The position numbers and the translations under genes are program-made. Shown here in pieces: positions 19,187 to 62,165 of a stretch of DNA of 64,000 bases. The DNA is from a virus (lineage: Duplodnaviria > Caudoviricetes): the IMG/VR virus record IMGVR_UViG_2791355224_000001, positions 1-64,000 of that record, one strand, 5' to 3'. Numbering within the stretch: the stretch's first letter is position 1; each line of letters starts with the position of its first letter. The notes beneath the pieces were generated by a model that worked only from the letters and a program-made list of their open reading frames with translations, ran no database searches and was not told the origin of the DNA.

Positions 19187-20185
19187 ATGGAGGCGTTTAT
19201 TATTGAACGGAAAAGACGCGTTAACCTCGCGGCTGCTGGCCGCAAATCCTCTACGGTAGAACTTCCGCTGGAATCCGCCGACTTTGATTGTGCGGTCTAC
19301 TCCTTCCTCCGATATTGTCGCATTCGTAACCTATCCGGCAATACCGTCGATTTTTACCGCGATGTTCTAAAAGAGCTAGAGAAACAACTCGCGAGTCAAG
19401 ACGTTACTCGGCCGATTGACATTACGAAAGATAACGTACTGAACGCAATGGATAAAAAGCGAAACGAAAAGATTAAGCGGGGACGTGCGGAAACTCCTTC
19501 TGATGCTACGATGAACAAGCTTATACGCGGATGGCGGGCTTTCTTTAACTGGCTGCATACGGAGGGATTTATCGATCCCAATCCTTTTAACGGAATCGGC
19601 GTTATAAAATCCGAGCGAAGAGTCATCGAGACTTTTTCGAATGCGCAGGTAAAGGCGCTACTGGATGCGCCAAACCGATCTACATTTACGGGATACCGTG
19701 ATTATGTGATCATGCTTACCTTATTGGATACCGGCATCAGAATTAGCGAATTGGCCTCGTTAAGAGTTACGGATATAAACTGGGGAGATCGGACGTTTAA
19801 GGTGTACGGCAAGGGGCGTAAGGAACGAATTGTACCTTTTTCACGCGCATTAGAGAAGCACTTGAGAGAGTACGTAGAAATACGAGGCACTGTGGATACT
19901 GACTGTTTATTCGTCAATATTGATAACGGCCCGTTTAAGGTCCGCGGTATCCAGCAGGCTATACAGCTTTACGGAAGGGACGCAAGAATAAAAGGAGTTC
20001 GGGTAAGCCCGCATACGTTTCGCCATACCTTCGCTAAAATGTACATAATGAACGGTGGCGACTCGTTTAGCCTACAGAAGATCCTCGGGCATACCTCGCT
20101 CGAAATCGTAAAAATGTACGTAAATTTGTTTAGTACGGATGTAGCGAAACAGCACGCCAAGTTTTCTCCATTGGAACGCCTATAA
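19187..20185 (+). CDS. int: tyrosine recombinase / phage integrase (start ATG 19187 or ATT 19202)
   Basis: SAM-like N-domain, LLDTGIRISEL, GKGRKER, HTFRHTFA, LGHTS...Y. Confidence 0.95.
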   Translation: MEAFIIERKRRVNLAAAGRKSSTVELPLESADFDCAVYSFLRYCRIRNLSGNTVDFYRDVLKELEKQLASQDVTRPIDITKDNVLNAMDKKRNEKIKRGRAETPSDATMNKLIRGWRAFFNWLHTEGFIDPNPFNGIGVIKSERRVIETFSNAQVKALLDAPNRSTFTGYRDYVIMLTLLDTGIRISELASLRVTDINWGDRTFKVYGKGRKERIVPFSRALEKHLREYVEIRGTVDTDCLFVNIDNGPFKVRGIQQAIQLYGRDARIKGVRVSPHTFRHTFAKMYIMNGGDSFSLQKILGHTSLEIVKMYVNLFSTDVAKQHAKFSPLERL

Positions 20186-20202
20186 ATCGTTAACACAAGA
20201 CG

Positions 20203-20243
20203 TAGCGCTCAGTTCTTCGGGATTGGGCGCTATTTTTTTTTTT
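20203..20243 (+). terminator. intrinsic terminator after integrase
   Basis: TAGCGCTCAGTTC-TTCG-GGATTGGGCGCTA followed by a long T run. Confidence 0.85.
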
Positions 20244-20308
20244 GCAAAAAAGTGAGCGAGACGTGACTAGTCTCCGTTGAGATAATTGTAGGAGGAAATA
20301 TTTTCGCG

Positions 20309-20355
20309 AAAAGTGTGCGGAATTGAAGCGAACTTTCTATATAGCGATATGAGCG
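20309..20355 (+). promoter_or_regulatory. phage-specific promoter-like motif, copy A
   Basis: TGTGCG-N14-YTTCTAT; near-identical copy at 39327 and same spacing at 29220. Confidence 0.6.
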
Positions 20356-20414
20356 TAAATTTCCACTAACTTGCGAGACCTCGACAAAAAGTAGAGGCGA
20401 AAGGAGGCGTAATA

Positions 20415-20692
20415 TTGGACGCTCGGGACCGATTGGAAGCCCATCTAATTTGGAGATCGCACGTTGCTTTGAGATATCAGAGTCCTATGAAACGTATAAG
20501 AGATTTTTAAGAGCTTATGGTATCCCCTACCGCTATATAGATCGTAACTATGGAGGAAGAGAGGCCATTTCACAGGGGTATGACTTTGAGCGGAGGTTAG
20601 GCAATATTCTTAGCATTATTTACCCGGTTGTAGAGCAGTGGCCAAAAATAGGAATCTGTATTCCAGATTTTATAATAAACGGCTCAGAATAG
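20415..20692 (+). pseudogene. hypothetical gene, apparently frameshifted
   Basis: AAGGAGG + TTG at 20415 opens a short frame; a longer 80-codon frame continues from 20450 in the -1 frame. Confidence 0.35.
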
Positions 20693-20773
20693 GTTGACGC
20701 TAAACTAAGCGCCCATAGTGTGCGTGACTCCCGGTGCCGGACGGTTGAGAAATACGAAGAGGAGGCAGATGTT

Positions 20774-20944
20774 CTGACGATTTACTACGCTCGTGGAAAA
20801 AGGGAGCCGTTTAAGTACGGGATTGCTAACGTACTTCACGTATCCGCATTGTTTCCTGCACTATTGGCCGCTGGGCGTCCTGACTTAATAGCGGACATGA
20901 AGAAATTTATATCCAGCGTTTCTTTTAAGGAGGAGGTTGCATAA
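20774..20944 (+). CDS. hypothetical protein (probable CTG start)
   Basis: GAGGAGG 8 nt before in-frame CTG; stop overlaps the next ATG. Confidence 0.5.
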   Translation: MTIYYARGKREPFKYGIANVLHVSALFPALLAAGRPDLIADMKKFISSVSFKEEVA

Positions 20945-22357: not shown

Positions 22358-22383
22358 TAAAAATCGAAACGGAGGTATTACGC

Positions 22384-31794: not shown

Positions 31795-31830
31795 GCCGAA
31801 CACCAAACAATAACGAAGGGAAGCGGTAAT

Positions 31831-32289
31831 ATCGCACACATAAACGAAGTTAAAGGGAAGCACTCGGAAATGACGGCTCGGCTCGCACTCATGTCTAACG
31901 GATGGACGGTAGCCACAACGGACACGGACGAGTCGTTCGATATCGTGGCACGAGATCCGGTTAGCCGCGCATGGAAAACGTTCCAAGTTAAGACGATTAA
32001 GGTGCGGACAGACCGACGCGGCGATCTCGTGGTTAACGGACGAAAAGGTAACGGAGAGCCGTATACGCTATCCGAGACTGATTACTTTATCGGTGTCATG
32101 GGATCGGAAGATGGCGGGTTGCCTACGGTCTACGTATTCGAGAACAACGAGCAATCTGAGTACTGGGCGACGGAGACAAGCGCCGAGCGACGCTGGGTTC
32201 GCTTGCCGATCGAGTTGGACCGTGCTACTTACGCGGTAAACGTTGGTGAAACGGAGTTGGCGGGACCGACGGATTATATCGCGGCTTAG
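31831..32289 (+). CDS. PD-(D/E)XK endonuclease (probable ATC start)
   Basis: KG..SE...FDIVARD...FQVKT; RBS-like GAAGGGAAG 7 nt before ATC. Confidence 0.7.
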   Translation: MAHINEVKGKHSEMTARLALMSNGWTVATTDTDESFDIVARDPVSRAWKTFQVKTIKVRTDRRGDLVVNGRKGNGEPYTLSETDYFIGVMGSEDGGLPTVYVFENNEQSEYWATETSAERRWVRLPIELDRATYAVNVGETELAGPTDYIAA

Positions 32290-37042: not shown

Positions 37043-37051
37043 GAGGCGGCC

Positions 37052-38107
37052 ATCATATCGCAATCAATCGCAGATAAACTCGCGCAGGACTTTACGCAAT
37101 TCTTAAATCAATGGCACTCCGCACCAGAAGTGTACGATGACGCGCTCGATGCGCAGATCCACAAGTGGTATTACGATTACCTAACGGACAAGTCTCGCAA
37201 GGTATGGCCTCCTCGCGGCATTCCGTACTTTTCTCCGTCAGCCGCCAATTCGGATGCTCGCGGGCTCTACGAAAAGATGCGCGGCGCCAAGAAGGAGCAG
37301 ACGGAACGTCCACCGCATCAGGGACGCTGGGTGCGCCTGGGAACGTCAATCGGCGACATGATTCAGCGGGACGTTCTCTTTGCAGAGCAGCATTATGCCC
37401 GGCACATGGGCGAGAATCCTCCATTCAAGTTCGAGCGTAACGGACTCGGCGAGCCGCTGTTTGAGGAGTTTGCGAAGGTATCGAAGATCGCGGAGCACGC
37501 CGGTCAGACGTTTGGACTTTACGGCACGGGTGACGGTATTATGCGTGTTTATGTGCCGGAGTTGGGGCGTGAGATTCGCGTTGGGCTCGAAGTAAAATCG
37601 AAGCAGACTACGTATTCGATGACGTCGGGCTTCTCCGCGCGTAAGGGGCCGAAGGAGGACCACGTGAAGCAGTGTATAACGTACTCGGCGATGTACGGAA
37701 CGCCGTCCGATCCGCTTGATTACTACGTTATCCTCTACGTAAATGGCTCTAAGAAGGCGTGGGAGATGACGCCCGAGGACTTCGAAAAGAGCCCGGATAT
37801 TCTCGCGTTCGGCCTACACATTACGGACGAAATGCGCACGGAAGTCCTCGACCACTTCGCGGGAATTGTTGCGGCAGCCGAAGCGGGCGAGCCTCCGAAA
37901 TTGGACATCGACAAGTGGACGTTCAACAATTTTAAGCAGGCGTGTGCCTTATCGCTATCGCCATCCGAGCTTGCGGAAATCGAACGCCAAGTCGCAGCCC
38001 TACAGCGGTCCAACCTCCCCGATCATAAAAAGCGTGGCCCAGCGCAAGCCCTAGCGGATATACATCGGATTAGAGCGGAACACGGAGCCGTGAAGGAGGC
38101 GGCCTGA
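37052..38107 (+). CDS. Cas4-like / PD-(D/E)XK exonuclease (probable ATC/ATA start)
   Basis: FSPS, G.GDGI, GLEVKSK, H..Q...Y; AGGAGG before ATC 37052/ATA 37055 with the frame closed by TAG at 37040. Confidence 0.75.
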   Translation: MISQSIADKLAQDFTQFLNQWHSAPEVYDDALDAQIHKWYYDYLTDKSRKVWPPRGIPYFSPSAANSDARGLYEKMRGAKKEQTERPPHQGRWVRLGTSIGDMIQRDVLFAEQHYARHMGENPPFKFERNGLGEPLFEEFAKVSKIAEHAGQTFGLYGTGDGIMRVYVPELGREIRVGLEVKSKQTTYSMTSGFSARKGPKEDHVKQCITYSAMYGTPSDPLDYYVILYVNGSKKAWEMTPEDFEKSPDILAFGLHITDEMRTEVLDHFAGIVAAAEAGEPPKLDIDKWTFNNFKQACALSLSPSELAEIERQVAALQRSNLPDHKKRGPAQALADIHRIRAEHGAVKEAA

Positions 38108-38383
38108 TTGACGTACATTATCGAGTCCATTCGCACGCACGGCGGTACTCCGACTGATCGCGAAGCCCGGCGTAAGGGCCAGCGCGTAGAGATTCTGAAC
38201 CTTAACGTAGGCCAGGCGCTCCTTCTCGTGTATCGCGACGATCACAATAAGATCCTGCAGACCTCTCGCGTTGAGAGCATCGCAGGGTACGACGTCCTTA
38301 CGGTTAAGACGGCGAACAGCGTATACACTTTTCGCAAAGGAGGCGTTAGCCCTGGCGGATCAATCGGCCACGAACCGAAGTAA
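38108..38383 (+). CDS. hypothetical protein
   Basis: AAGGAGG + TTG; TSRV...VKTANSVYTF. Confidence 0.65.
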   Translation: MTYIIESIRTHGGTPTDREARRKGQRVEILNLNVGQALLLVYRDDHNKILQTSRVESIAGYDVLTVKTANSVYTFRKGGVSPGGSIGHEPK

Positions 38384-38930
38384 AGAACCGGCGTATCGCA
38401 TACTAGGTTTAGACTTATCGTCTTCGCCCGGAGCTGCGGCGATCGAGGTGCGGAATAGAACTCCGTATCTCATCGCGGCCTCGTCCGTGGCTACAACGAA
38501 AGACGATACGGATGCCGTGCGGAATGTTGCGGTCGAGTCGTTTATCTCGCAATTCATTTACGAAAATAGGCCGTTCGATATCGTGGTTCGCGAGGACTTT
38601 ACCAGCGGGCGGAATAAACGGGCGACGCAGCTCGTATTCGGATCATGGGCGGCTGCTGACCGCGCACTACTGGCGTTCGGCTACCGTGCGGAAGACCTGA
38701 AGCCTGCGCTGAGCCCGACCAGCGTTAAGAAAATCGTAACCGGAAATGGAAAGGCGGAGAAGCCGGAAGTTGCGGCGGCTGTACGTAAGTGGCTTCGGTT
38801 GCCTAATGGTCCAGACGGTAGTCCTTACAAGTTTCGAGCCGGATACGATGATAGCGACGCGTGCGCTGTAGCGCTGGCGTACTTGATTCGTGAGGGTCTA
38901 ATAGATACGGAAGGAGTTGTTGCGGCGTGA
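38352..38930 (+). CDS. RuvC-like Holliday junction resolvase (probable CTG start)
   Basis: RILGLDLS, VVRED, P..VKK.VTGNGKAEK.EV, DDSDACAVA. Confidence 0.85.
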   Translation: MADQSATNRSKEPAYRILGLDLSSSPGAAAIEVRNRTPYLIAASSVATTKDDTDAVRNVAVESFISQFIYENRPFDIVVREDFTSGRNKRATQLVFGSWAAADRALLAFGYRAEDLKPALSPTSVKKIVTGNGKAEKPEVAAAVRKWLRLPNGPDGSPYKFRAGYDDSDACAVALAYLIREGLIDTEGVVAA

Positions 38931-41975: not shown

Positions 41976-42836
41976 TTGGCGCAATTAAGCGGAGTAAAGA
42001 CGATAAGCAGTACGGAGATTGAGTACGGAGGTAAGCGGTACGTAAAGACGGAAGGGTTTGGCGAGCCCGGAGATATTGTACGGAGTGATTGGGATTATTC
42101 GTATCTACCGCAGGGGACGTTTTACCTCGTCGGCGCGGAAGGTAGTTTCGCTGACTTGGACGGTGACGTGTACGAAGTAGACACGGAGATGGACGATGAA
42201 ATCACATTATTCCGCAAAGTCACCGGAAAAGACGGAAGAAAAGCGGAAGTTATTAATCGAGGAAGAGTCTATACAACGTATAAACGGTTTGCGGAGAAGC
42301 ACGGATATCCGGACGCTGCGGTAAATAGCGATAGCACAGATAGCCGCAAGGCTATGAAAAACGGGGATATTGTCACGCTTCTGACGAGAGGAACCCATGA
42401 AAATCCTAGCTGGGGAACGCTATGGATCGTAGAGACTGCGGAAGGCGAGCGTTTTATCATCAACGAAGGAGGATTACGTATTCTTCCTTCTACTTCGGAA
42501 ATCATCGCTCAAAAACGTACCGAACTCGCGGCTCTAACCGCTGAGATCACGGCCCTCGAAACGCAACTTGCCGAGGAACAAGCGCTCAAAGTTGGCGACT
42601 GGGCGCGCGTTGTCAGCCGCACGTATAACGAAGAGTTCCATCACGGTGATATTGTTCGCGTAATTACTGTGGATAGCTCGGACATCCCTTATCAGGTCGA
42701 GTCAGCCGGAGGAATGACGGATTGGGCTTGTAGCACCTCGCTCGAAAAGATCACGCCAGCCGATGCACGCGCAGCCCTTATCGCCAGCATAGACGAGTTG
42801 TTCGGCGGGGAGGAGGCGGTTGCATCAGCGGCTTAA
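41976..42836 (+). CDS. SH3/KOW-like repeat protein, paralogue of 32351-33592
   Basis: shared FYLV...D.DGD and LKVGD.A.VV...GDIV.VI..DSS..PY.V modules. Confidence 0.72.
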   Translation: MAQLSGVKTISSTEIEYGGKRYVKTEGFGEPGDIVRSDWDYSYLPQGTFYLVGAEGSFADLDGDVYEVDTEMDDEITLFRKVTGKDGRKAEVINRGRVYTTYKRFAEKHGYPDAAVNSDSTDSRKAMKNGDIVTLLTRGTHENPSWGTLWIVETAEGERFIINEGGLRILPSTSEIIAQKRTELAALTAEITALETQLAEEQALKVGDWARVVSRTYNEEFHHGDIVRVITVDSSDIPYQVESAGGMTDWACSTSLEKITPADARAALIASIDELFGGEEAVASAA

Positions 42837-43288
42837 TACACGTAGTAGTATCGCTTATTATCGCACTGTCCGGGATTAACGGAATTCCGCCTAATATGAA
42901 CGTTAAGCCTGCGCAAGTATCTTCGGAGTCAACAGGCAAGGCTCCGAAGGCACAAACGCAGGTATCCGCTAAGTCTTCGCCAAAAGACGTGAAAAAGCGG
43001 ACAGCAAAAATATACGCGGTTACAGCGTACTCTGTCGGCGATGACTACACGCCAAGTACCGGCATTACCGCGTCGGGTAAACCGGTCGAAGAAGGCGTGA
43101 CGGCCGCGTGTCCGAAGGAACTGCCGTTCGGGACTAAACTGCGGATTGAGGGCGTCGGCGATCGAGTATGTACGGACGGGGGAGGACGAATTAAAGGGCG
43201 TAAGATTGACGTTTACATTCCGAAAGTTAAGGACGCCCTGATTTTCGGTAAGAAGAAGTTACGCGTGGAGATACGCGCCGGGGAGTAG
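42824..43288 (+). CDS. 3D-domain (lytic transglycosylase-like) protein with N-terminal anchor (probable ATC start)
   Basis: VTAYS, GITASG, P.ELPFGT, D.GGRIKG.KIDVY; the ATC extension supplies a hydrophobic signal GLIHVVVSLIIALSG. Confidence 0.82.
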   Translation: MSGLIHVVVSLIIALSGINGIPPNMNVKPAQVSSESTGKAPKAQTQVSAKSSPKDVKKRTAKIYAVTAYSVGDDYTPSTGITASGKPVEEGVTAACPKELPFGTKLRIEGVGDRVCTDGGGRIKGRKIDVYIPKVKDALIFGKKKLRVEIRAGE

Positions 43289-46294: not shown

Positions 46295-47623
46295 ATCGGA
46301 AAAGCATCACGCGCAAGATGGGACGGAAACGTCCGAAGCATGGCGATCATCGCAAAGCCACGCGAACAAATAACGGCGGAGGACCTCGACTTTCTCCGCC
46401 AGAACTACACGTCAACAGGCGGGCTCTTACCGAATGCATACGCAGGCGGTGCCTTTTACACGCCGACACACGTTGCCCGCTTCATTATCGAAGCATTGCG
46501 CGGTCTCTCCGACGGTAAGTTCCCGGTTGGCTCAAGTTTTCTCGAACCGTCGGCAGGCAGCGGCGTATTCATCGAACACCTGCCGGAAGACGCGGAGGTC
46601 ACTGCGCTCGAACTCGATGAGACAAGCGCAAAGGTTACGTCGCTCCTATATCCGAACGCTAACGTAATCCAGGGCGATGCGTTCCGGTTCGACCGTCGTG
46701 ATTACTACGATTACGTAATCGGAAACCCTCCGTACGGCGTTAGTATCGATATCGCGGCCGAAGACGTACCGGACGAGTTCGTGACGTTGACGAAAAAGAA
46801 AGGCGGCCGACTCGGCGGCAAGTCAGAGTGTGCGTTCATCGAACTTGCGATTAAAGCGGTCAAGCCCGGCGGTTATATTGCGTTCGTGCTTCCTCTGGGT
46901 CTGAATTACGCTAATTATGCGGAGAAAGTGCGCCAGCTATTGTACCAAGCGTGTTGGCACGTAGCGACTGTAATGTTGCCGGGCGAGACGTTCGCGCTAA
47001 CTGGTACAACGATTCCAACGCAAATTTTAATCGTGCGGAAAGCGCCGCCAGGAACTCCGCTCATTCCGTCTGCAGAGAAGCGGTGGGGATCGAATTTCCG
47101 CAGTGATTACGGAGATATAGCCGACTTTGGTGCCAAATTTCTAGCGGGGCAACCTCCGGCCTACTTCGCGAAAATAACGGATATCGGCTACGACAAAGAC
47201 GGTAAATCAACCGATAAATGGGGCGACGGACTCACGCAACTGGACGAATTGCTCGAAGACTTTACGGACGATTACCTGGTGCGCTCGAATTTGTATCCGC
47301 ATATTCCGTCGTGGCACAGTCTCAAGGACGTCAGCACGTTCATGTTTTCTCACGGTAACGATACCTGTGACGGGCACCAAATCGCAAGCAAAACATACTC
47401 AGACGGGCCTTACCGTTGGAATGAACTGACACTAGGCGCCGGCAAGGAAATCGAATGGCGCGGTAAAGGCGGAGCTGAGCTGGTTAGTACGTTTGACTTC
47501 GGCTGGCAGGATCGGATTGTAGCGGACTATTACGTAGAACTTGCGCAACAGGGACAAGAGAAACAGGCAATCTCTCGTCCGGCGGAGACAAGCGCGAGTT
47601 CAACCATTAAGGAGGCCGCATAA
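46295..47623 (+). CDS. N6-adenine DNA methyltransferase, DarB-like N-terminus (probable ATC start)
   Basis: AFYTP, motif I LEPSAGSG, motif IV GNPPY, LP.ETF...GT. Confidence 0.85.
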   Translation: MGKASRARWDGNVRSMAIIAKPREQITAEDLDFLRQNYTSTGGLLPNAYAGGAFYTPTHVARFIIEALRGLSDGKFPVGSSFLEPSAGSGVFIEHLPEDAEVTALELDETSAKVTSLLYPNANVIQGDAFRFDRRDYYDYVIGNPPYGVSIDIAAEDVPDEFVTLTKKKGGRLGGKSECAFIELAIKAVKPGGYIAFVLPLGLNYANYAEKVRQLLYQACWHVATVMLPGETFALTGTTIPTQILIVRKAPPGTPLIPSAEKRWGSNFRSDYGDIADFGAKFLAGQPPAYFAKITDIGYDKDGKSTDKWGDGLTQLDELLEDFTDDYLVRSNLYPHIPSWHSLKDVSTFMFSHGNDTCDGHQIASKTYSDGPYRWNELTLGAGKEIEWRGKGGAELVSTFDFGWQDRIVADYYVELAQQGQEKQAISRPAETSASSTIKEAA

Positions 47624-48329: not shown

Positions 48330-48728
48330 ATCGGACACGTCAAGAGGGATATCCACGCATCTGAACGGAGATACACGGTAACATACGCACTTAACGACGT
48401 GGCTGGCGTTAAGAAACTATTACGTGACCGCCACGCAATTTCAGCCGCTAGATTCACGGGCGATACGGCTGCCAGCGATATTCTTATCGATTTGAACAGC
48501 GCAATCAATTCGGCAGGCTTATCCGAGCGTCAAACGGAGGCCGTTGCGTTAGTATCCGGTTTTGACCTTACGCAGAAGGAAGCGGCCGCTGTTATGGGAA
48601 ACTCACGCGAAGCCGTCGCTAAATTGTACGAAGAGGCTGCGGTTAAGATAGCGGAAGTGTACAAGCGGTGGGAGTACGGGGAAGTTACGGCTGAGTACGA
48701 ACTTGAAACGGAAGAGGAGGCGGCCTGA
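48330..48728 (+). CDS. sigma-70 region-4 HTH protein (probable ATC start)
   Basis: LSERQTEAVAL...DLTQKEAAAVMGNSREAV. Confidence 0.75.
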   Translation: MGHVKRDIHASERRYTVTYALNDVAGVKKLLRDRHAISAARFTGDTAASDILIDLNSAINSAGLSERQTEAVALVSGFDLTQKEAAAVMGNSREAVAKLYEEAAVKIAEVYKRWEYGEVTAEYELETEEEAA

Positions 48729-50585: not shown

Positions 50586-50696
50586 TTAATTTTTTAAAAT
50601 GATAGTCCATTTACAGTAATATATAGGAAAAATAACCTGTGTCTATAGAACTAATTATGCTATATTAAGAAAAAATATGAATTAAAGGAGATTTTT

Positions 50697-51482: not shown

Positions 51483-51496
51483 GACAAAAAAAAAAG

Positions 51497-51525
51497 AAAG
51501 AGCCCCTACTAGCGGGCTCTTTTTA
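51497..51525. terminator. bidirectional terminator
   Basis: AAAGAGCCC-CTACTAGC-GGGCTCTTT flanked by A and T runs. Confidence 0.75.
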
Positions 51526-51690
51526 ATTTGCGTCTGTTTTCTCAACGATAAATAACGCTTCAATACTTACGCCGAGTGCCCGTGCGATCGCGAATAAGTG
51601 GGCGGCCTCGTGGCGGCTGTTTTTATCGAAACGGGAGATCGAACCTTGCGGCACACCGGACATTTGCGAAAGCTGTGTTTGAGTGATGTC
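51523..51690 (-). pseudogene. 5'-truncated XRE HTH gene
   Basis: ITQTQLSQMSGVPQGSISRFD...LFAIARALGVSIEALF; first helix and RBS not evident. Confidence 0.55.
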
Positions 51691-51782
51691 GAATATTATA
51701 GTCACGCCGGCCAATGGTTATATGGTAAAATAGAACATACTTTTCCAATTATTCATAATATAAATTAATAGGTGGGAATAAG

Positions 51783-52862: not shown

Positions 52863-52928
52863 GATACCCAACACTTACCGCCTCTATCCGTAGTAGCCAC
52901 GCGCTATAATCGTATAGAGGTGTTTTCT

Positions 52929-53792
52929 ATGTTTATATCCCCGATGTTACTCGAAACGGCAGCCGCTCCGTTCTCGGATTCGCGCTATATTTTCGAACCG
53001 AAAATTGACGGCCACCGTTTAATATATTCGCAGGAGAGCGGCGTTGTCCGCCTATACACGCGCCATAATAACGACTGTACCCGGCAGTACCCGGAGATCG
53101 CCAACGCTGTATTCCCGCATGACATCGTTCTCGACGGAGAGATCGCGGTCTATGATCCGCAAACCAGCGTAGTCGACTTTGAGTCCGTGATGTCCCGCTT
53201 TCAGGCGCGTCGGGCCGATAAGATAACGCAGCTCAGCGCCCAGTTACCTGTTACGTTCGTTGTTTTCGACATCCTGCGGTACAAGGGCGAGGACTTGCGC
53301 CAATTACCGCTCATGCAGCGCAAGGAAATACTTGCGGGCTTATCGCTACCGAACGCTCATTTCGGCGTTGTTCCCTACGTGGAGGGAGCCGGAGAAGCGT
53401 TGTTTACGCAGATGCAGGCGCGATCGCTCGAAGGCATGGTCGCTAAGCGTACGGATAGCACGTACGTCAGCCGACGGTCGGCCGCATGGCAGAAGGTGAT
53501 CAACTGGTCTTATGCCGACGTATGGCTGACCGGTTATAAGAAGGCGGAGTTCGGCTGGCTTGCGGCTGTGCAGGCGGATAATAGCGCGAAGATACGTCCG
53601 GCTGGCATTATCGAGCATGGCGCTAGCCCAACGCACAAGAAGGCGTTTTATGGCGTGGTGAAGCCGCTGATTACCGGAGAGGATCGCGAGTTTGTGTACG
53701 TGGAGCCGCGGATAAGAGCACGCGTGAAAATGCGAAATTGGACTCGCGCAGGGATGCTGCGGAGTCCGGTGTTTACGGAGTTTATTGTTTAA
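52929..53792 (+). CDS. ATP-dependent DNA ligase
   Basis: motif I EPKIDG, LDGEI, VFDIL, EGMVAK, W.K. Confidence 0.9.
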   Translation: MFISPMLLETAAAPFSDSRYIFEPKIDGHRLIYSQESGVVRLYTRHNNDCTRQYPEIANAVFPHDIVLDGEIAVYDPQTSVVDFESVMSRFQARRADKITQLSAQLPVTFVVFDILRYKGEDLRQLPLMQRKEILAGLSLPNAHFGVVPYVEGAGEALFTQMQARSLEGMVAKRTDSTYVSRRSAAWQKVINWSYADVWLTGYKKAEFGWLAAVQADNSAKIRPAGIIEHGASPTHKKAFYGVVKPLITGEDREFVYVEPRIRARVKMRNWTRAGMLRSPVFTEFIV

Positions 53793-54564
53793 TGCAACAG
53801 TTACAAAAAGAACGACCAAACTTAGTCAATTCCCAATAAGTTTTCTTCAACGCAACGTCGTGGTTTGGGTTTGTCTCGTGTAAGTCCTCTTGAGCAAATT
53901 TAATGAAGCTGTGATCATATAGACTATCGTATACTGCATCATCGGTAAACGTTACTTTGGTGTCAATATATAACAACCCAAGCCTAATGAGGTTGTCAAT
54001 TGAAGCTCCGTACGCACTGTGGTTACTCTCATTTAGATCCGGGAACGGAAAATAGTTTCTGTAAACTTCCATATATACATCAGAACTCTTGAACAACAGA
54101 ATAGAGCCAGAGCCAACTTTATTTCTATTCTCAAATAAAAAATTAAGAGCCTTTGCGTCCAAAGGAGAAAGTTGTTTTATTATCTCGACAAAGGCTGGAT
54201 GAGCTTGTTCGGCAAGTGACTTTGTCACGGATTTAGCTATCAGTTTTGAGAACATTTTTTTCATTGTGTCACTCTCTACGTAATACTTGGAGGCTTCTAG
54301 AGCGGGGCCGACAATATTCAATTGAGGATCAATTACTTCCGCAGGTGGTATTTTTGAGACTTCCGATAATAAAAGATCCTTATAGCGCTCGATTTCAATT
54401 TGCTTTTTTATTTTAAGTTTTTGTAACGGGGAAAATACTAAATTAAAAATACTGCTTAGCCCTTCTCCAAGCTCTTTAGATGCTGGCTCAAGTGTATTTT
54501 TAGCCAATTGAGTCGCTGTTTCAATAGGCGACTTTGCTATATCTAATAATTTTTCTTCATCCAT
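53782..54564 (-). CDS. DUF4393/Abi-alpha-like protein
   Basis: P.LNIVGPALEAS.Y, HPAFVEIIKQLSP.DA, IDNL.RLGL, LT.FG..F...C. Confidence 0.75.
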   Translation of the reverse strand: MDEEKLLDIAKSPIETATQLAKNTLEPASKELGEGLSSIFNLVFSPLQKLKIKKQIEIERYKDLLLSEVSKIPPAEVIDPQLNIVGPALEASKYYVESDTMKKMFSKLIAKSVTKSLAEQAHPAFVEIIKQLSPLDAKALNFLFENRNKVGSGSILLFKSSDVYMEVYRNYFPFPDLNESNHSAYGASIDNLIRLGLLYIDTKVTFTDDAVYDSLYDHSFIKFAQEDLHETNPNHDVALKKTYWELTKFGRSFCNCCIKQ

Positions 54565-54673
54565 TTATTTTCCTCCTTAGTCTATCGTCACAGCCATAAA
54601 AGTAATCCCCTAATACAAGTTTTAATTCTACGACTACCACTTAATTCCTTCCGGGAAACATAGACCGCAGAAG

Positions 54674-55018
54674 CTACTCGCCAAAGCGGTCTATTTTTGC
54701 GTCCAAAACGTCATCCAGTGCAATCCACGTCAATTCTCCGTTACTCACCAGTTTCACCTCGCGCCGATACGTCAACACCGTCTTAACCACACCAGCCACC
54801 CAGCAATCTTCAATCATGTCGAATAACCGCAACTTCACCGACACCTGCAGCGTTAGTGACCGGCTGATCGCAGCCTCGATCAGCTCGGACTCCTGCAGAA
54901 TTAACTCAGGTTTGGTTCGCCGGGCCTGTGCTAGTTGCAGCCGGATTTCCGCCTCGCGGTGTTCTGGCATGATCATCCATGAATTCAATATACCGTTCCC
55001 TTTGAGTTTATCCTCCAT
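54674..55018 (-). CDS. YolD-like protein
   Basis: KLKGNG...S.MIMPEHRE...KPEL...E...WI..DDV. Confidence 0.78.
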   Translation of the reverse strand: MEDKLKGNGILNSWMIMPEHREAEIRLQLAQARRTKPELILQESELIEAAISRSLTLQVSVKLRLFDMIEDCWVAGVVKTVLTYRREVKLVSNGELTWIALDDVLDAKIDRFGE

Positions 55019-55063
55019 CGTGCTAGTACTCCGTCCAATAATCGGAGCTACTCTGTTGGGAGG

Positions 55064-55309
55064 TCACCGTTGCCTCGACTGTCCCGACAGACTGCGCTCC
55101 CACGCCTCCAAAATAACGATTGTGTCTATCGCTGGCTTATCCGGCCAATATATGTACTCCGCAAGCATCAATTCGTTTAGCGCCGCTTCAATATCCGCAG
55201 GGCTGCGCCCGGTCAGCCGTTCGAGTTCCTTTTCCGTCGGCATCCGGCGTTGCTGCGACATGTAGTTGAAAAGAATCCGTAGTGTTTTACGTCCAAAATC
55301 GGATAACAT
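55064..55309 (-). CDS. small winged-helix protein resembling a LexA DNA-binding domain
   Basis: MLSDFGRKTLRILFNY....RMPTEKELERLTGR; AAAGGAG RBS. Confidence 0.65.
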   Translation of the reverse strand: MLSDFGRKTLRILFNYMSQQRRMPTEKELERLTGRSPADIEAALNELMLAEYIYWPDKPAIDTIVILEAWERSLSGQSRQR

Positions 55310-55331
55310 CGTCACCACTCCTTTGAACGTA

Positions 55332-55353
55332 ATTATACGGGAACATGCGTTCT
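55332..55353 (-). promoter_or_regulatory. SOS box and -10 of the wHTH-yolD operon
   Basis: GAACATGCGTTC at 55341-55352; TATAAT on minus strand at 55332-55337. Confidence 0.75.
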
Positions 55354-55371
55354 GTTTTCAAGCGGAAGTTT

Positions 55372-55566
55372 TTAGCTGGCGTATTTAAACGTACAGACAT
55401 TCCGCATAAAGTACTCGCCGTGGACACGTACGGAAACCTCCGTAATGTCTTCAATTACTCCGCTGCCGACGAGTTCGTCCGCGATAAATATAACGATGGG
55501 CACGCACTCAAGTTGCGCGGTGTAAAAGTGGACATTTGCGGTAAGTTCGTTCATAAAACGGTTCAT
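55372..55566 (-). CDS. hypothetical protein
   Basis: AAAGGA RBS + ATG; MNRFMNELTANVHFYTA. Confidence 0.45.
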   Translation of the reverse strand: MNRFMNELTANVHFYTAQLECVPIVIFIADELVGSGVIEDITEVSVRVHGEYFMRNVCTFKYAS

Positions 55567-55697
55567 TTGCGTTGATCCTTTCGTTTGACTTGCGGATAAC
55601 TTCGACAAATAGTGCCCATTTTCCTGCTAAAAGGAGGAAATAAGACCCAGTTATCGAATTATTAGGTATATATAACTGGAAAATATGGGGGATAAGT

Positions 55698-56297
55698 ATG
55701 GCAAGACGAAAGAGCAAGGCGAAACAGCAGGAAGAATTATTACAGGCATTACTTGGGGCGGCGTTCGTGTTCCCAGCGTTAGGCATTTTCTCCGCGACGG
55801 GATCGCTCGGATCGGCGGTAACGGCCGGTGTTTTATGCGCAGGTATCGTTATTGCGATCATGATTTACGTAAACGTGAAGAGAACGGAGCGGTTAAAACG
55901 TTCGGGGATTGCGGAAATTGACAAGATGGAAGGCGTACAATTCGAGCATTACCTCGGACACTTATTCCGATCGCAAGGGTATAAAGCGAAGGTAACGAGT
56001 GCTTCGGGCGATTATGGCGCTGACTTGGTGCTGTCTAAAGATGGTAAACGGATCGTTGTGCAGGCCAAGCGCTACAGCAAAAACGTGGGCTTAAAAGCCG
56101 TCCAGGAGGTTCAGAGTGCCATTGCGCATTATAGGGCTTCCGCAGGCTGGGTCGTGACTAACCGGGATTACACGGACCAGGCGTATAAGCTTGCGAAATC
56201 CAATGGCGTACGTCTTATCGGTAGGGACGAATTGATCGAAATGCTGCTGCAGATGCGGGAAAAGACGGCCGCTACTAAAAAGAAAATTAGCGCATAA
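55698..56297 (+). CDS. membrane-anchored Mrr-like restriction endonuclease domain protein
   Basis: two N-terminal TMs; M.G..FE..L..LF, GDYGADL, VQAKRY, V.EV, L.G.DEL. Confidence 0.85.
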   Translation: MARRKSKAKQQEELLQALLGAAFVFPALGIFSATGSLGSAVTAGVLCAGIVIAIMIYVNVKRTERLKRSGIAEIDKMEGVQFEHYLGHLFRSQGYKAKVTSASGDYGADLVLSKDGKRIVVQAKRYSKNVGLKAVQEVQSAIAHYRASAGWVVTNRDYTDQAYKLAKSNGVRLIGRDELIEMLLQMREKTAATKKKISA

Positions 56298-56353
56298 ATA
56301 AACGCCTACATGGCGGAAATAATCCGTTAAGTAGGCGTTTTTCTTACGCATTT

Positions 56354-56785
56354 TTACCGAGTCTTTTTGCGCTCACTGACGCCGAGGTAGTCTTTAAGCG
56401 CGTCTTGAAGCACGTGTGAGTAGTTCACCTTATTCTGCGCGGCTAGATCGTCCAACCATTTCGGAATAGTCAGCGTCTTCTTAACGGCGCGGTCCGCCAT
56501 CTTATCGCGAACAGGCGGCATCCAGACGTCGATCAATACGGCAGCCTGGCCGGGTTCGAGTGCGATGTCGGACGCTCGCGTTGGTTCCGGGATGATGTCG
56601 CCGTCTTCTTCCATTCCGAAGAGATGCAGCGAGAGACAGTCCTTCGCCATGAATAGCGCATCTTCGTCGTTATCGCCGCAGGTAAGTGCGCCCGGCAAGT
56701 CTGGAAACTCGATAGAGATACCGTCGTCTCCGTAATCGAAAACGGCAGGGAATACGTACCGGTCTTTTAACTGTTTATCGTACAT
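56354..56785 (-). CDS. hicB: HicB antitoxin
   Basis: FPDLPGALTCGD...A..MAKD.L, VKKTLTIPKWL...VNYS.VLQ. Confidence 0.92.
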   Translation of the reverse strand: MYDKQLKDRYVFPAVFDYGDDGISIEFPDLPGALTCGDNDEDALFMAKDCLSLHLFGMEEDGDIIPEPTRASDIALEPGQAAVLIDVWMPPVRDKMADRAVKKTLTIPKWLDDLAAQNKVNYSHVLQDALKDYLGVSERKKTR

Positions 56786-56813
56786 TTATAATATAAACCT
56801 CCTTAGGGAGGAG

Positions 56814-57005
56814 CTATTTCAGCCCCGCCTGTTTGAGTATACTTGCTATTGTCTTCTTTGGTAAGTCTTTGTTGGGGTGAGGGATTGTAACTTTCCCCGG
56901 CTTAGTCGGATGTTTGTATTGGTAGTGGTCGCCAGTTGCTCGTATGTAGTACCATCCGTCCTCTTCAATCATTTTTATTAACTCCCTCGAAGAGTATCCC
57001 TTCAT
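56814..57005 (-). CDS. hicA: HicA toxin (mRNA interferase)
   Basis: ELIK.IE.DGW...GDH.QYKHP.KPGKVTIPHP.KDL...T..SILKQAGL. Confidence 0.93.
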   Translation of the reverse strand: MKGYSSRELIKMIEEDGWYYIRATGDHYQYKHPTKPGKVTIPHPNKDLPKKTIASILKQAGLK

Positions 57006-57028
57006 GGCATCACCGTCCTTATGGTTAA

Positions 57029-57082
57029 ATTATAATACGTATCATTATACGTGTCAAGATATTTATACGTCTTTTTATACGT
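57029..57082 (-). promoter_or_regulatory. hicAB sigmaA promoter with operator-like ATACGT repeats
   Basis: TTGACA-17-TATAAT on minus strand; four ATACGT copies overlapping or next to it. Confidence 0.75.
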
Positions 57083-57096
57083 GTTTTCCGTCCAGA

Positions 57097-57245
57097 GTTG
57101 TATTTCGTACGATTTCAAAGCTATATAAGTATAAGAGCCGCTTTCATGCGGTCTTTTTTCGTTTAGAGGGTTACATTCTGCTCTATTTCAAAGCTATATA
57201 AGTATAAAGGGATTTTAAGGGCCGCCACACGTGCGGTCTTTTCCC
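57097..57245 (+). repeat. two 23-bp direct repeats at 73-bp period, each followed by a GCCGC/GCGG hairpin and T run
   Basis: ATTTCAAAGCTATATAAGTATAA at 57112-57134 and 57185-57207. Confidence 0.8.
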
Positions 57246-57332
57246 GTTCAGGGAACACGTAAGCATACGAATGATGCGGGTATACTCCGCACACCTTACG
57301 TTATTTCTAACAACAAATAGGAGGCGTTGCAT

Positions 57333-57491
57333 ATGGCCGGAAACACTGGCGAACTGGGCGTTAAAGTTAACGTAGATATTACGGATGCGATCCGCGGACT
57401 TAAAGCGGTACAACGTGAGGCGAAGAAAGCTGCGCAGGCATTGCGTGAGCTAGAGACGGCGCAGAAGGCGGTGTCAAATGGCGCAGAGTAG
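57333..57491 (+). CDS. small hypothetical protein (52 aa, not in ORF track)
   Basis: GGAGG RBS; MAGNTGELGVKVNVDITDAIRGLKAVQREAKKAAQALRELE. Confidence 0.65.
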   Translation: MAGNTGELGVKVNVDITDAIRGLKAVQREAKKAAQALRELETAQKAVSNGAE

Positions 57492-58302
57492 ACGATTAGC
57501 AGATCCGGAAACGGGCGAACTTATATACGCGACTGTCCTTGATTATGGCGACCGTGTCATTACAGAATCCCAACGTAAGGGAGCCGCTGAACACTTCGAA
57601 CGAGAAACGTTCAAAGGGCGCAATGCCGGCTTTACTTTTACGTCTATGGACGACATCCACTACGTAACCGAGCGACTCACAACGGCACAATGCGGATACC
57701 TCCTCGTGCTACAATGCTACGTTGATTATGACGGCGGCCGCATCGTTAAGGCTCGTGGCGAATCGATGAATACTGCGGACATGCTTAACGTTCTGCAGCT
57801 CAAACGAAAGCGCAGCACGTTTTACGACTTCATGAGCGTTTGCTTAGAATCCGGCATCATAACAGAAGACGGACACGGCAGCTATTACGTTAATCCGCGT
57901 TATCACTTCCGAGGAGCTACGCAAAACCGCGCAGTTATCCGTACATACACGGCAAAGGTGCGCCAAGCTTACCGCGAAGTTAAGGCGGTTGATCTCGGCC
58001 TCATGTACAGGATGCTACCGTACGTCCACGTAAGTAATAACGCGCTCTGCGATAACCCAACGGAGCGCGATCCGAAGAAAATACGTTGGTTTAACGGAAA
58101 GGGCCTAGCGGCTGCGATCGGAGTCGACGAGAAGACGTTAACGCGTAGACTTCCGTATATGAAGTTCGGAGGCGAGTACGTTATTGCACGGACGTCTGTC
58201 GGTCCGCAGCGCATGTTCCAGTTCAATCCTAGCGTGTTCTACCGCGGTAATAAGACGCCGGACGAGTCGTTGATTGCGAAATTTAACGGACTGGTCGCTT
58301 AA
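57478..58302 (+). CDS. RepL-like winged-helix protein
   Basis: DPETGE N-terminus, YYVNP.Y.F.G and FNPSVFY.G motifs typical of Firmicute RepL-like proteins. Confidence 0.6.
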   Translation: MAQSRRLADPETGELIYATVLDYGDRVITESQRKGAAEHFERETFKGRNAGFTFTSMDDIHYVTERLTTAQCGYLLVLQCYVDYDGGRIVKARGESMNTADMLNVLQLKRKRSTFYDFMSVCLESGIITEDGHGSYYVNPRYHFRGATQNRAVIRTYTAKVRQAYREVKAVDLGLMYRMLPYVHVSNNALCDNPTERDPKKIRWFNGKGLAAAIGVDEKTLTRRLPYMKFGGEYVIARTSVGPQRMFQFNPSVFYRGNKTPDESLIAKFNGLVA

Positions 58303-59092: not shown

Positions 59093-59158
59093 AGCGCTGT
59101 TTGTCCGCAATGCTTGAGCGGATGAACGGCGCTCCTTTTATTACAGAAAGGAGGCGGA

Positions 59159-59563
59159 ATGATGGCGAAGCAATTAACGTCAGAACAATATATAGCGATA
59201 GAGTGGCTCGCTAAGCCGCGTAAGGGCGGTAAGACATACGAGGAGATAGCGCAGATGTGCGGAGTTACAGCGCGTACGCTTGAGAACTGGCGCAAGGATG
59301 CGACATTCGATGCGGAGTTTAAGCGTGCTATTGTTCGTGATAATAGTGCTAAGCTTCCGGAACTTATTGATTCGTTATCTACGATTGCCATGCGTGATGG
59401 AAACGCAGCAATGGCGAAGCTTGCGCTGCAGGTCAGCGGAATGCTTACGGATAGGATCGAGGTTGATACGAAGGATAACGCAGGAACGGATGTCGAAGCG
59501 TTGAGGGCGCGATTAGAGGCGTTGAAGCTCCGTAAGGATGGCGAATCCGAAACAGCGGAGTAA
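59159..59563 (+). CDS. phBC6A51-family HTH protein, probable terminase small subunit
   Basis: LT.EQ..AIEWLA.P..G.KTYEEIA..CGVT.RTL..WRK...F; upstream of TerL. Confidence 0.8.
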   Translation: MMAKQLTSEQYIAIEWLAKPRKGGKTYEEIAQMCGVTARTLENWRKDATFDAEFKRAIVRDNSAKLPELIDSLSTIAMRDGNAAMAKLALQVSGMLTDRIEVDTKDNAGTDVEALRARLEALKLRKDGESETAE

Positions 59564-60104
59564 TTAGCGCATTATATGAAGCGATTCGTGGGCGGGGACT
59601 TCGGATGCTTTCGGATCGCTCCGTTTTATCAACGAGAGGGTTCCGGCGCACGGCCCTCCGAAAACTTTCGAAATAGGCGGAATTGGCCGCCGGAATCAAC
59701 GGATTATATGCGGAATAGTACAAACGGTGGGCGATCGGCGGGCATGTTCGCAGACTCATTCGCACGAAAAACGTTGATGTGGCGCGGTTTTAGTAGGCGG
59801 GGCAGGGGCGGAGACTACTACGCAAAATGTAGATTTTGTGAATATGTAGGTCGCGTTAATGCGATGAAGTGAGGGCCCCCAAGGCCCCCTCCGAAATCGG
59901 CCGTTTCTGGTCCGTCTATAGTCCGCGTATCAAAATTAACTTTTGACTTTGCGAGGGGCTGCGCACAATGCGTAAGCCTCTTGCTTATTATTGCCGTGAA
60001 ATTAGCGGAGTTATCACGAGAGGGGAACGATTACCCTCGGCCGTAGGTAATTGCGCTAATTTTACGTCTAAAATCGCTGAAACGCAGGTGAAAGGGATGA
60101 TTGC

Positions 60105-60368
60105 ATGGTGGAGTTTACGGTAATTATCGCGGAAACAGCCGAAAAGGCTGCGGAGATTAACGCGCTTCTGCCGCCGAAGACGGACAAGTTTTGTATTCAA
60201 GCGTACTATTACGGTTATGCGTTTTGCGGACTTAGCTACAGAGGTACGCGTCCGACAACGGTACTATCACTCATCCCTCTGCGTGATGACGACGAGTGGG
60301 TGTGCCAATGCCTTCACCAGATCGGACGCCATGACGGAAGTACGCGCTGGATCATTCCGGAAGCTTAA
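60105..60368 (+). CDS. hypothetical protein
   Basis: AAAGGG RBS + ATG, 87 aa. Confidence 0.5.
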   Translation: MVEFTVIIAETAEKAAEINALLPPKTDKFCIQAYYYGYAFCGLSYRGTRPTTVLSLIPLRDDDEWVCQCLHQIGRHDGSTRWIIPEA

Positions 60369-60386
60369 AGAAAGGAGGCGATATCT

Positions 60387-62165
60387 ATCGCTTGGGTTAA
60401 CGGTAAATGGCTAACGCGTACTGAACGCGAAGCCAAAATTAACGAAATTGCTGCGTTACTGGACGTACTAGATGGCGTAGATATCGCCGCACTTAGTCCG
60501 GAAGACGCGGCCGAGATCGACGCACAGCTGGCGGAGTACGAACGCCTAACGCGAATCCACCGCTGCGAAACGAACCTGATCGAGTTTGCGCTTGAGTATT
60601 TTAGCGAGGCGCGCAATCCCGGCAATGACGGAAACTGGGACGGGTTCGATATTACGAAGTACGACGAGGCGCCGGAGTTCCACCGTGAAATCTGCGCTCT
60701 AATGGATGACGTAAGTAACGTCCATACCAACGACAAGGTAGCGGAGGCGGCGCCCCGTTCTCACGCTAAATCAACGTATTTATCAAAGGCGTTCCCGACA
60801 CGCGAGATCGTGTACCGCAAGCGCAAATACGAGATCATCATATCAGAGACACCAGCGGTAAGCTCAGCGAATCTCGATTGGATTGCGATGCAGCTTAAGA
60901 GTAACGCGAAGCTCCGGGCGGATTTCGGTCCGCTGTTGAGTCCGAAGCAGCAAGAGAATCCGAAGGATAACTCGTCCGAGTTTATTGCGTGGGAACCGCG
61001 CGATGATGGTACGAAAAAGATGCTGACGAAGGTTGAGGCGGCATCAACGGGTCAGGCGCTGCGAGGCCGGAACTGGAACGGCGTGCGGCCGGATCTTATT
61101 ATCTGCGATGATCTTGAGGACATCAAGTCGAACGCCGCCACGCCAGAACTCCGCAAGAAATTGAAGGATTGGTTCTCGCAGACCGTCGTACCGCTCGGCG
61201 ATCCGCGAGGAAAGAAGACGGCCTTTGTTTACATGGGAACAACGGTCCACCACGAAGCGCTGCTCGTTGACGTTCTATATAACCGGTCGGACTTCAAGAG
61301 TCGCGTGTATCGAGCTGTTATCGAATGGCCTGAGCGGATGGATCTTTGGGAAGCGTGCCGGCTCGTATATAAAGACCCCGACCGACCAAAAGAAGACCGC
61401 GTCAAGGATGCGCTCGCCCTCTACGAGTTGAATCGCGAAGAGATGGATCGCGGAGTGGTCGTATTGTGGCCGGAAGCGCAGCCGATATGGAAGTTGATGA
61501 CGTGGAAGTGGGATAACGGGTCGAAGGCGTTTAATACCGAGTACATGAACAACCCCGTTGATGAAGAGTCGATGATATTTAACCCGGAGAAATTCGTGTA
61601 CTGGGATTCGGGGATATTTCGCGACTTGTTAACGCAGTATCCTCGCCCGACCGATGAGTTTGACGTTTATATGGGCGTAGACTTCGCGATGGGGAAGACA
61701 CGGGGAGACTATTCCGCAATTGTAACGATCGCCCGCCATAAAGAAACCGGAACAAAATACGTTATTGATGCGTTCGGCGAACGGATAAAGCCGGACGCCT
61801 TTTTGCGTGTGATCGTCGAAAAGGCGCTCCGCTTTCAACCGAACGCGATAGCGGCCGAAGCGCAGGCAGCGCAGGAGTTCTTCGTTATGCAACTTAAGGA
61901 CGCATTAAGAGCGAAAGGCTATCCCGGCCACACGCGAGTTAAAGAGATACACCAAAGATCGCGTAAGGACCTGCGGATCGAGGCGCTCATGCCAGATATA
62001 GAGAGCGGAGCAATTCAGTTTTCGCGGAAACATTCGCTGTTGCTTGAGCAGTTCGAGATGTACCCGGCTGGCTCTCATGACGATTTGCCGGACGCATTAG
62101 AGATGGCAGTAAGTATCGCAAAGATTGGGCGGAAGAGAATAAGAGAGAAGCCTAATTGGTTGTGA
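60387..62165 (+). CDS. terL: terminase large subunit (probable ATC start at 60387)
   Basis: APRSHAKS, RG...RPDLIICDDLE, MGT.VH, MGVDFA, HDDLPDALE; frame open 105 codons upstream of the first ATG, back to AAAGGAGG. Confidence 0.92.
   Translation: MAWVNGKWLTRTEREAKINEIAALLDVLDGVDIAALSPEDAAEIDAQLAEYERLTRIHRCETNLIEFALEYFSEARNPGNDGNWDGFDITKYDEAPEFHREICALMDDVSNVHTNDKVAEAAPRSHAKSTYLSKAFPTREIVYRKRKYEIIISETPAVSSANLDWIAMQLKSNAKLRADFGPLLSPKQQENPKDNSSEFIAWEPRDDGTKKMLTKVEAASTGQALRGRNWNGVRPDLIICDDLEDIKSNAATPELRKKLKDWFSQTVVPLGDPRGKKTAFVYMGTTVHHEALLVDVLYNRSDFKSRVYRAVIEWPERMDLWEACRLVYKDPDRPKEDRVKDALALYELNREEMDRGVVVLWPEAQPIWKLMTWKWDNGSKAFNTEYMNNPVDEESMIFNPEKFVYWDSGIFRDLLTQYPRPTDEFDVYMGVDFAMGKTRGDYSAIVTIARHKETGTKYVIDAFGERIKPDAFLRVIVEKALRFQPNAIAAEAQAAQEFFVMQLKDALRAKGYPGHTRVKEIHQRSRKDLRIEALMPDIESGAIQFSRKHSLLLEQFEMYPAGSHDDLPDALEMAVSIAKIGRKRIREKPNWL

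Follow-up and report, generated by a model that had tools for sequence, protein, structure and literature searches.

Near-cognate start codons behind Shine-Dalgarno sites in a siphovirus-type prophage and its Bacillales relatives, and their probable role as an expression dial

In Escherichia coli reporters, methionine was shown at an AUC start, and AUA, AUC, AUU and CUG, with methionine at the N terminus, yield 1 to 2% of AUG, according to a preprint that counts only two confirmed non-canonical starts in that species (bioRxiv 10.1101/063800). The AUU or AUA start of infC and the AUU start of E. coli pcnB limit proteins of which little is needed, as described in two reports (bioRxiv 10.1101/063800, PMC2830850). 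The latter also gives the starts of Deinococcus dnaA (ATC) and rpsL (CTG) as proven by N-terminal proteomics, following ragged annotated N termini. In Streptomyces, the GTC start of sigR is repressed by initiation factor 3 (IF3) and sets the ratio of the sigma factor to its partner within an operon, as stated in PMC5472188. Here we describe ATC, ATT, ATA and CTG codons that occupy start positions in a prophage within positions 1 to 64,000 of IMG/VR record IMGVR_UViG_2791355224_000001. This whole 64,000-nucleotide (nt) stretch, referred to as the window, corresponds to G000:C4:1876819-1940818 within a 5.67-Mb genome. An earlier note on this DNA had proposed that up to nine prophage genes begin at such codons, and all ten codons that it named are present in the context that it described.

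Start codons located by aligned homologues

The prophage, of siphovirus type, extends from an integrase gene at about 19.2 kb rightwards past the window end. In seven of its genes, an ATC or CTG codon sits where homologues carry a start codon, either canonical or again near-cognate, and this codon is in every case preceded by a Shine-Dalgarno site. The spacing from the Shine-Dalgarno (SD) sequence to the codon at near-cognate sites is 5 to 9 nt.

31831..32289, plus strand: small PD-(D/E)XK-type nuclease (phrog_5018); start ATC 31831, weaker SD AAGGGAAG at 31816-31823
37052..38107, plus strand: Cas4-like (PD-(D/E)XK) exonuclease; start ATC 37052 or ATA 37055, SD GGAGG at 37042-37046
38352..38930, plus strand: RuvC-like resolvase; start CTG 38352, SD GGAGG at 38339-38343 (8 nt)
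42824..43288, plus strand: 3D-domain protein with an N-terminal membrane anchor; start ATC 42824, SD GGAGG at 42812-42816 (7 nt)
46295..47623, plus strand: N6 DNA methyltransferase; start ATC 46295, SD GGAGG at 46281-46285 (9 nt)
48330..48728, plus strand: sigma-70 region-4-like regulator (phrog_3512); start ATC 48330, SD AAGGAG at 48315-48320
60387..62165, plus strand: terminase large subunit, TerL; start ATC 60387, SD GGAGG at 60374-60378 (8 nt)

The frame of TerL is closed by an in-frame TAA (60366-60368) six codons upstream of ATC 60387, and the next ATG, GTG or TTG in that frame lies 105 codons past it. The exonuclease frame is closed by a TAG (37040-37042) three codons upstream, and its next canonical codon is 26 codons downstream. 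Both frames are thus closed just upstream and free of canonical codons over these distances, as the earlier note had described them. Six loci of related genomes align from TerL residue 1, five with ATC and one with ATT, each behind an SD site. Among 41 loci of named genomes (56-91% identity), from genera that include Paenibacillus, Cohnella, Fontibacillus, Brevibacillus, Neobacillus, Bacillus, Niallia, Virgibacillus and Terribacillus, the aligned codon was ATC in 34, ATT in 2, ATG in 2, TTG in 2 and GTG in 1. In phage genomes, it was ATG in C7Cdelta (a Paenibacillus phage) and in prophage phBC6A51, GTG in Sporosarcina phage Lietuvens and ATC in Bacillus phage 268TH007. A sample of 80 viral contigs, from which 9 were left out for a missing N terminus or missing upstream DNA, gave 71 further loci (ATC 53, ATG 10, TTG 3, GTG 2, ATA 2, ATT 1), with an SD site at 7 to 9 nt kept throughout. 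The merged set held 96 distinct contexts, of which 74 had ATC (ATG 11, TTG 5, ATT 2, GTG 2, ATA 2), and 63 of the 78 near-cognate loci had no in-frame canonical codon between the upstream stop and the start.

The first 104 codons of TerL differed, over 41 pairs, at 1353, 1084 and 2423 sites in codon positions 1, 2 and 3, respectively. This third-position-dominant change shows coding selection on the N-terminal extension. Elsewhere, synonymous codons are free to vary, so the retained C of ATC does not reflect a lack of divergence. ATC made up 74 of the 78 TerL starts of the form ATA, ATC or ATT, compared to 47% of internal isoleucine codons. The motif at TerL residues 121-130, which we take to be Walker A, lies outside the 105-codon extension and hence does not help to decide the start, and a search by sequence found no solved structure for TerL. 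No conserved RNA structure was predicted in 26 aligned TerL 5' regions, and the window gave no match to an Rfam family.

Two other features of the TerL start region were considered and rejected. A palindrome, GCGATAtcTATCGC, around the start was considered as a protein-binding site, and its spacer differs among relatives. The out-of-frame ATG in ATC GCA TGG, considered as the real start, is forced by the alanine and tryptophan codons; in the window, it reads TTG GGT TAA. The TerL 5' alignment (window 60330-60386) also displayed an extended site, ACGAAAGGAGGCGGT, that is common to most genes of this phage clade. Short arrays of ...CACG / AACGAAA repeats stand upstream of TerL in many relatives and may be a packaging or promoter signal.

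For the remaining genes, each protein was searched in 37-39 genomes that have a TerL relative, and the in-frame start with the best SD support close to the aligned N terminus was taken. PHROG profiles align from the extended N termini, and the downstream canonical codons had SD scores of 1 to 3, save ATG 31870 in the nuclease with a score of 5. In the exonuclease, GGAGG is followed by ATC 37052 at 5 nt and by ATA 37055 at 8 nt. Its orthologues (25 examined, 22 with a clear SD) started at ATT in 7, TTG in 7, ATC in 6 and CTG in 2, with no ATG, and in several the start was the codon right after the upstream stop (TAA followed directly by ATT). In the CTG-started resolvase, the Pfam RuvC domain runs from residue 17 onward, so a start at GTG 38448 would cut into it. 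CTG stands at the aligned 'LA' start in genomes G017 and G023, and the 21 resolvase orthologues with an SD (26 examined) had ATG in 9, CTG in 6, ATA in 2, TTG in 2, GTG in 1 and ATT in 1.

The nuclease alignment, whose rows were read by eye, had about 10 ATG, 8 ATC, 4 TTG and 1 ATA at the aligned codon over 29 loci, with a conserved 'AH..E..GK.SE' motif after every aligned start. The methyltransferase frame is closed by a TGA (46289-46291) one codon upstream of ATC 46295, and its seven orthologues had ATG in 4, TTG in 1, ATC in 1 and CTG in 1; in G023 the codon is ATG. The sigma-like regulator, which its PHROG profile matches from position 2, had ATC at the aligned codon in G017 and G023; in 30 further loci the codon was ATG in 18, ATC in 3, GTG in 1 and TTG in 1, and 7 loci did not align to residue 1. 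The portal gene, meant as a control, gave TTG 15, ATG 5, GTG 3, ATT 2 (one doubtful), ATA 1 and ATC 1 in 27 loci with an SD (29 examined).

The first 13 nt of the 3D gene lie within the end of the upstream gene. Eight prophage-linked orthologues were chosen by contig position from 30 loci, the remainder being mostly host paralogues. They started at ATC in 5, ATG in 1 and TTG in 1, with 1 unclear, and the starts directly precede a hydrophobic helix. The orthologue L270 (G067:C5) has a GTC, which is not among the usual near-cognate codons, at the proper spacing from AAGGAGGTG, ahead of the membrane anchor. The anchor kept by these orthologues and the pattern of change in TerL bear out the proposal that the extensions are real protein. 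The alignment of homologues that had been suggested as a check confirmed that the N-terminal extensions are conserved, with ATC in 74 of 96 TerL contexts, whereas in other genes ATC alternates with ATG or TTG.

Two candidates near the left end of the prophage gave different outcomes.

19199..20185, plus strand: tyrosine integrase; candidate start ATT 19199 or ATT 19202, SD GGAGG at 19189-19193
20345..20944, plus strand: broken PD-(D/E)XK-like gene; open reading frames (ORFs) 20345-20692 and 20693-20944 in the same frame

The GGAGGCGTTT site recurs in the two closest integrase homologues (54-55% identity), where a TTG or an ATG follows it at a distance of a few codons at most. By this comparison, ATT 19199 or 19202 is the probable start, and an in-frame ATG at 19187, which overlaps the SD, is a possible alternative. 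In the broken gene, an in-frame TAG (20690-20692) lies between 'PDF' and 'DAK' motifs at a position that is TGG in G075 and G096, where a single ORF has 315-317 codons, and the window gene is much shorter on its 5' side. CTG 20774 was rejected as a start, being internal to this gene, with homology running through it and over 27 codons upstream. The meaning of an ATT at 20414 behind AAAGGAGGCG in the same damaged gene is uncertain. Of the nine genes listed earlier, seven were therefore placed by aligned homologues and the integrase is probable, but the gene assigned to CTG 20774 does not stand.

Phages that can be grown carry the same kinds of starts. In the plaque-forming B. subtilis phage 268TH007 (L342, ON210834.1), TerL starts at ATC 1753 and a portal gene, unrelated to that of the window, at ATC 3524, which comes right after a TAG and 64 codons ahead of the next canonical codon. 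GenBank begins TerL at ATG 2068 (105 codons short) and the portal at ATG 3716 (64 short), and the PHROG terminase and portal profiles reach into both extensions. Phage C7Cdelta (L424, MH431938.1) has ATG at TerL, and candidates at an ATC exonuclease, a CTG resolvase and a CTG portal, genes whose records are 47, 75 and 42 codons short; its PolA may start at ACG. At the sites in both records (L342 1753 and 3524; L424 3129, 37639, 41707 and 42701), the annotated starts lie downstream and have no SD. In phage Lietuvens, which shares TerL and has a different tail, the first 50 kb yielded no near-cognate candidates. The N termini of TerL entries in databases are ragged, many entries beginning at one or another downstream codon. 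ATC, ATT, ATA and CTG are not considered by gene finders or in the annotation of phages, and the records are truncated as a result. Essential genes are consequently recorded too short in public records, and phage gene finders restricted to ATG, GTG and TTG will repeat the error.

Enrichment, gene classes and Shine-Dalgarno strength

A strict genome-wide scan counted sites that had an SD, lay in a frame closed upstream without a canonical start, opened an ORF of 120 codons or more and were separated by 12 codons or more from the next canonical start. It replaced a looser scan that was too noisy (46 sites for ATC versus about 40 for control codons). Over the whole genome, the strict scan found 23 ATC sites versus 3-21 for each control codon (control mean estimated at about 10). 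Six of the 23 fell within window positions 31.8-60.4 kb, which is 29 kb of prophage (binomial P = 2e-7), and the 17 outside the prophage were at the control level. The same scan found no near-cognate site at 1-18.9 kb, in agreement with the claim that the adjacent tail cluster has no such cases. In 12 related prophage regions, read on the phage strand, it found 183 sites for ATG, 50 for TTG, 24 for GTG, 23 for ATC, 9 for ATT, 5 for CTG and 5 for ATA, and 58 sites for the other 57 codons together, or about 1 each. In this Bacillales phage clade, ATC is used about as often as GTG.

A census of orthologues, which favors canonical codons wherever one had an SD, gave 304 calls: ATG 127 (plus 37 with a weak SD), TTG 38 (plus 9), GTG 19 (plus 10), ATC 33, ATT 8, ATA 5 and CTG 5, with 13 unclear. 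Near-cognate codons were thus 51 of the 291 called starts, or about one in six. They were concentrated in proteins that are low in copy number or potentially toxic. Near-cognate calls were made for 10 of 12 TerL orthologues, 9 of 10 exonucleases, 3 of 4 3D proteins, 5 of 12 sigma-like regulators, 4 of 7 resolvases, 3 of 12 nucleases, 3 of 7 PolA proteins, 3 of 12 primases and 2 of 7 methylases. None was made for the structural or abundant set (scaffold, 0/11; capsid, 0/9; minor head protein, 0/11; TerS, 0/12), and the portal had TTG in 8 of 11 orthologues. The earlier description of the genes as mainly encoding DNA-processing proteins is upheld by this census, in which most of the affected genes encode DNA-processing or other low-copy proteins.

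Along the head operon, the starts run from ATC at TerL through mostly TTG at the portal to ATG at scaffold and capsid. This order matches the copy numbers that tailed phages need of these proteins. In this respect the clade offers a natural series, with start codons that are stronger where virion assembly needs more copies.

SD duplex energies were computed with the 16S tail read from the genome itself. The mean was -14.8 kcal/mol at near-cognate starts versus -12.7 kcal/mol at ATG starts (Mann-Whitney P = 3e-5), and near-cognate starts resembled GTG and TTG starts. Translational coupling was rejected as the cause, as the distance to the upstream in-frame stop was like that of canonical starts (medians of 7 and 5 codons). 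A sequencing or methylation artifact was also rejected, with no shared flanking motif at the ATC codons and the same codon in more than 90 independent assemblies.

Constitutive tuning by the start codon and its alternatives

The near-cognate codons are probably the true initiation codons of these genes and, as the comparisons suggest, set a constitutive low amount of protein within long operons. A strong SD would position the 30S subunit, and the initiator tRNA would pair imperfectly with the near-cognate codon, which would lead to a low but sufficient rate of initiation. Most genes of the long one-directional operons have a near-uniformly strong ribosome-binding site, so that the start codon is apparently the main dial of protein amount. 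The order of the dial would be ATG, then TTG or GTG, then ATC: abundant structural proteins such as scaffold and capsid would have ATG, those of intermediate amount TTG or GTG (the portal mostly TTG), and those needed in few copies or harmful in excess near-cognate codons. We infer this last purpose for the terminase motor, exonuclease, resolvase, nuclease, methylase, sigma-like regulator and wall-active 3D protein. The sigma-like gene at 48330, by analogy, may be limited in the way that Streptomyces sigR is.

Variation among relatives leans toward constitutive tuning. ATG, TTG and ATC interchange in the sigma-like regulator, nuclease and methylase, and C7Cdelta has TerL at ATG yet ATC or CTG candidates at other genes. 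The resolvase start also alternates with ATG or TTG, and TerL is nearly fixed at ATC. The earlier note had suggested that a phage factor might relieve the near-cognate starts during lytic growth, and nothing of the kind was detected: there was no tRNA gene in the window, nor onward to a tRNA-Leu at window coordinate ~84.46 kb that is probably the right end of the prophage, and no Pfam domain of an initiation or translation factor in the 49 window proteins scanned, many of which had no family at all. Together with the absence of an Rfam element or a TerL 5' structure, and with the published low yields, these results point to ordinary near-cognate initiation. The tRNA set of the genome looks ordinary, with 6 CAT and 2 GAT anticodons.

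Several points weigh against constitutive tuning. Every argument is comparative, the start calls come from a simple SD score rather than a trained gene finder, and the related genomes are not independent, so that the P values overstate. The nuclease has a possible second start at ATG 31870, a codon with a weak SD-like stretch. A model in which any weak codon will do does not explain the choice of ATC over ATT or ATA at TerL, and ATG at 11 of 96 TerL loci means that some lineages tolerate a strong start.

A different reading is that the near-cognate genes form an IF3-responsive regulon, silent at high IF3 and jointly derepressed by a fall in initiation fidelity on induction or infection, or by a phage factor. 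The host infC (C4:1321058) keeps the classical ATT, behind GGAGG, which indicates that IF3-dependent discrimination is present and leaves room for an IF3-sensitive response; the genome has another IF3-like gene, which starts at ATG and is distant from the prophage (G000:C4:5152927-5153133, minus strand). The IF3 repression reported for sigR (PMC5472188), the occurrence of the feature on seven or eight genes of one phage and the firmness with which TerL holds ATC are in keeping with such a regulon. It nevertheless seems unlikely, given that the prophage has no tRNA and no initiation-factor-like domain among the scanned proteins, that the same gene switches among ATG, TTG and ATC in relatives, that C7Cdelta has ATG at TerL despite its candidates elsewhere, and that the members are both early and late genes, which differ in the timing needed. 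A related and somewhat more doubtful idea is that the ATC-started set, made up of the packaging motor, recombination nucleases, a methylase, a sigma-like regulator and a wall enzyme, rises in output together as the IF3-to-ribosome ratio or the condition of the 30S subunit changes in the induced or infected cell, with the near-exclusive choice of ATC reflecting a response specific to that codon. If true, this initiation-fidelity program would be the first viral regulon run by start-codon stringency. The preference for ATC over ATT and ATA, in the 78 TerL starts and in the census (33 versus 8 and 5), could also come from a dedicated decoding of ATC as a start in the hosts or phages. This is very unlikely, as no phage tRNA was found, the tRNA genes of the genome look ordinary, ATC sites outside the prophage do not exceed controls, and shared ancestry inflates the TerL count.

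It is highly improbable that the downstream ATG, GTG or TTG codons are the real starts, with the stretches upstream untranslated, even though the GenBank entries for TerL and the portal of 268TH007 and many other TerL entries begin there. Those codons lack SD sites, the upstream stretches are conserved as protein, the ATG, GTG or TTG of relatives falls exactly on the aligned codon, and the RuvC domain and 3D anchor would be cut. Even less credible is an origin of the N termini by read-through or frameshift from an upstream ORF, or by decay into pseudogenes that have lost their starts. ORF 60105-60368 is in frame with TerL across a single TAA, and the gene at 20345-20944 is truly broken. However, the stop upstream of TerL is 4 to 66 codons away and the upstream genes differ among relatives, with a divergent one in 268TH007 and Lietuvens; the SD at 7 to 9 nt is kept everywhere, and the 26 aligned 5' regions share no structure. 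Decay is at odds with the codon-position pattern in TerL, with intact genes in more than 90 loci and with plaque-forming phages that carry the same codons. Constitutive tuning by the start codon is directly testable, as is dependence on IF3, because members of the clade form plaques on B. subtilis.

Neighboring elements and comparison with known systems

The prophage has roughly 85 ORFs by a rough count. They encode sigma factors, a DnaB-like helicase, a Toprim primase, PolA, dUTPase, two methylases and a ligase, and later TerS, TerL, portal, scaffold, capsid, tape measure and endolysin. The PHROG profile match of the tape measure (L314:8669-12373, window ~71851-75555) starts only at about profile position 300, and a 283-codon ORF in another frame (L314:7659-8501, window ~70841-71683) lies directly upstream. 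Possibly the gene is split, or the N-terminal portion of the protein has a coding sequence of its own. A separate phage-like element adjoins the prophage, and an island of lower GC content within the prophage is probably defense or moron cargo.

1-17100: contractile-tail (PBSX-like) module of the separate element, with canonical starts only
3717-5177: sheath of this module
10520-11638: baseplate of this module, which also has fibers
8027-8680 and 16203-17063: endolysins of this module
50600-58300: lower-GC island (0.45) inside the prophage
52929-53792: ATP-dependent DNA ligase of the island
53782-54564, minus strand: Abi-alpha
55698-56297: Mrr-like nuclease
56354-56785, minus strand: HicB-like antitoxin

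Searches of the literature, with subscription journals and supplementary files outside our view, found no terminase described as starting at ATC and no account of near-cognate starts throughout a phage clade. The scale, with seven or eight near-cognate starts in one prophage, sets this system apart from those described. As in infC and pcnB, a near-cognate codon stands behind an SD, and the host itself has ATT on infC. Unlike these single host genes, one of which has proven IF3 feedback, the starts described here belong to seven or eight genes of one phage and usually have ATC rather than ATT. As in Deinococcus, ATC and CTG are conserved starts of important genes. Those starts are chromosomal, in another phylum, number 2-4 per genome and are supported by peptides, whereas ours lie in a mobile virus clade at far greater density and rest on sequence comparison. 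In Streptomyces sigR the codon is GTC, and IF3 dependence there was shown by mutants. The closest parallel in logic is the use of ATG, GTG and TTG as a dial within operons, which likewise pairs weaker codons with stronger SD sites and lower-copy products; in the phages described here, the ladder extends one rung lower, to ATC, ATT, ATA and CTG.

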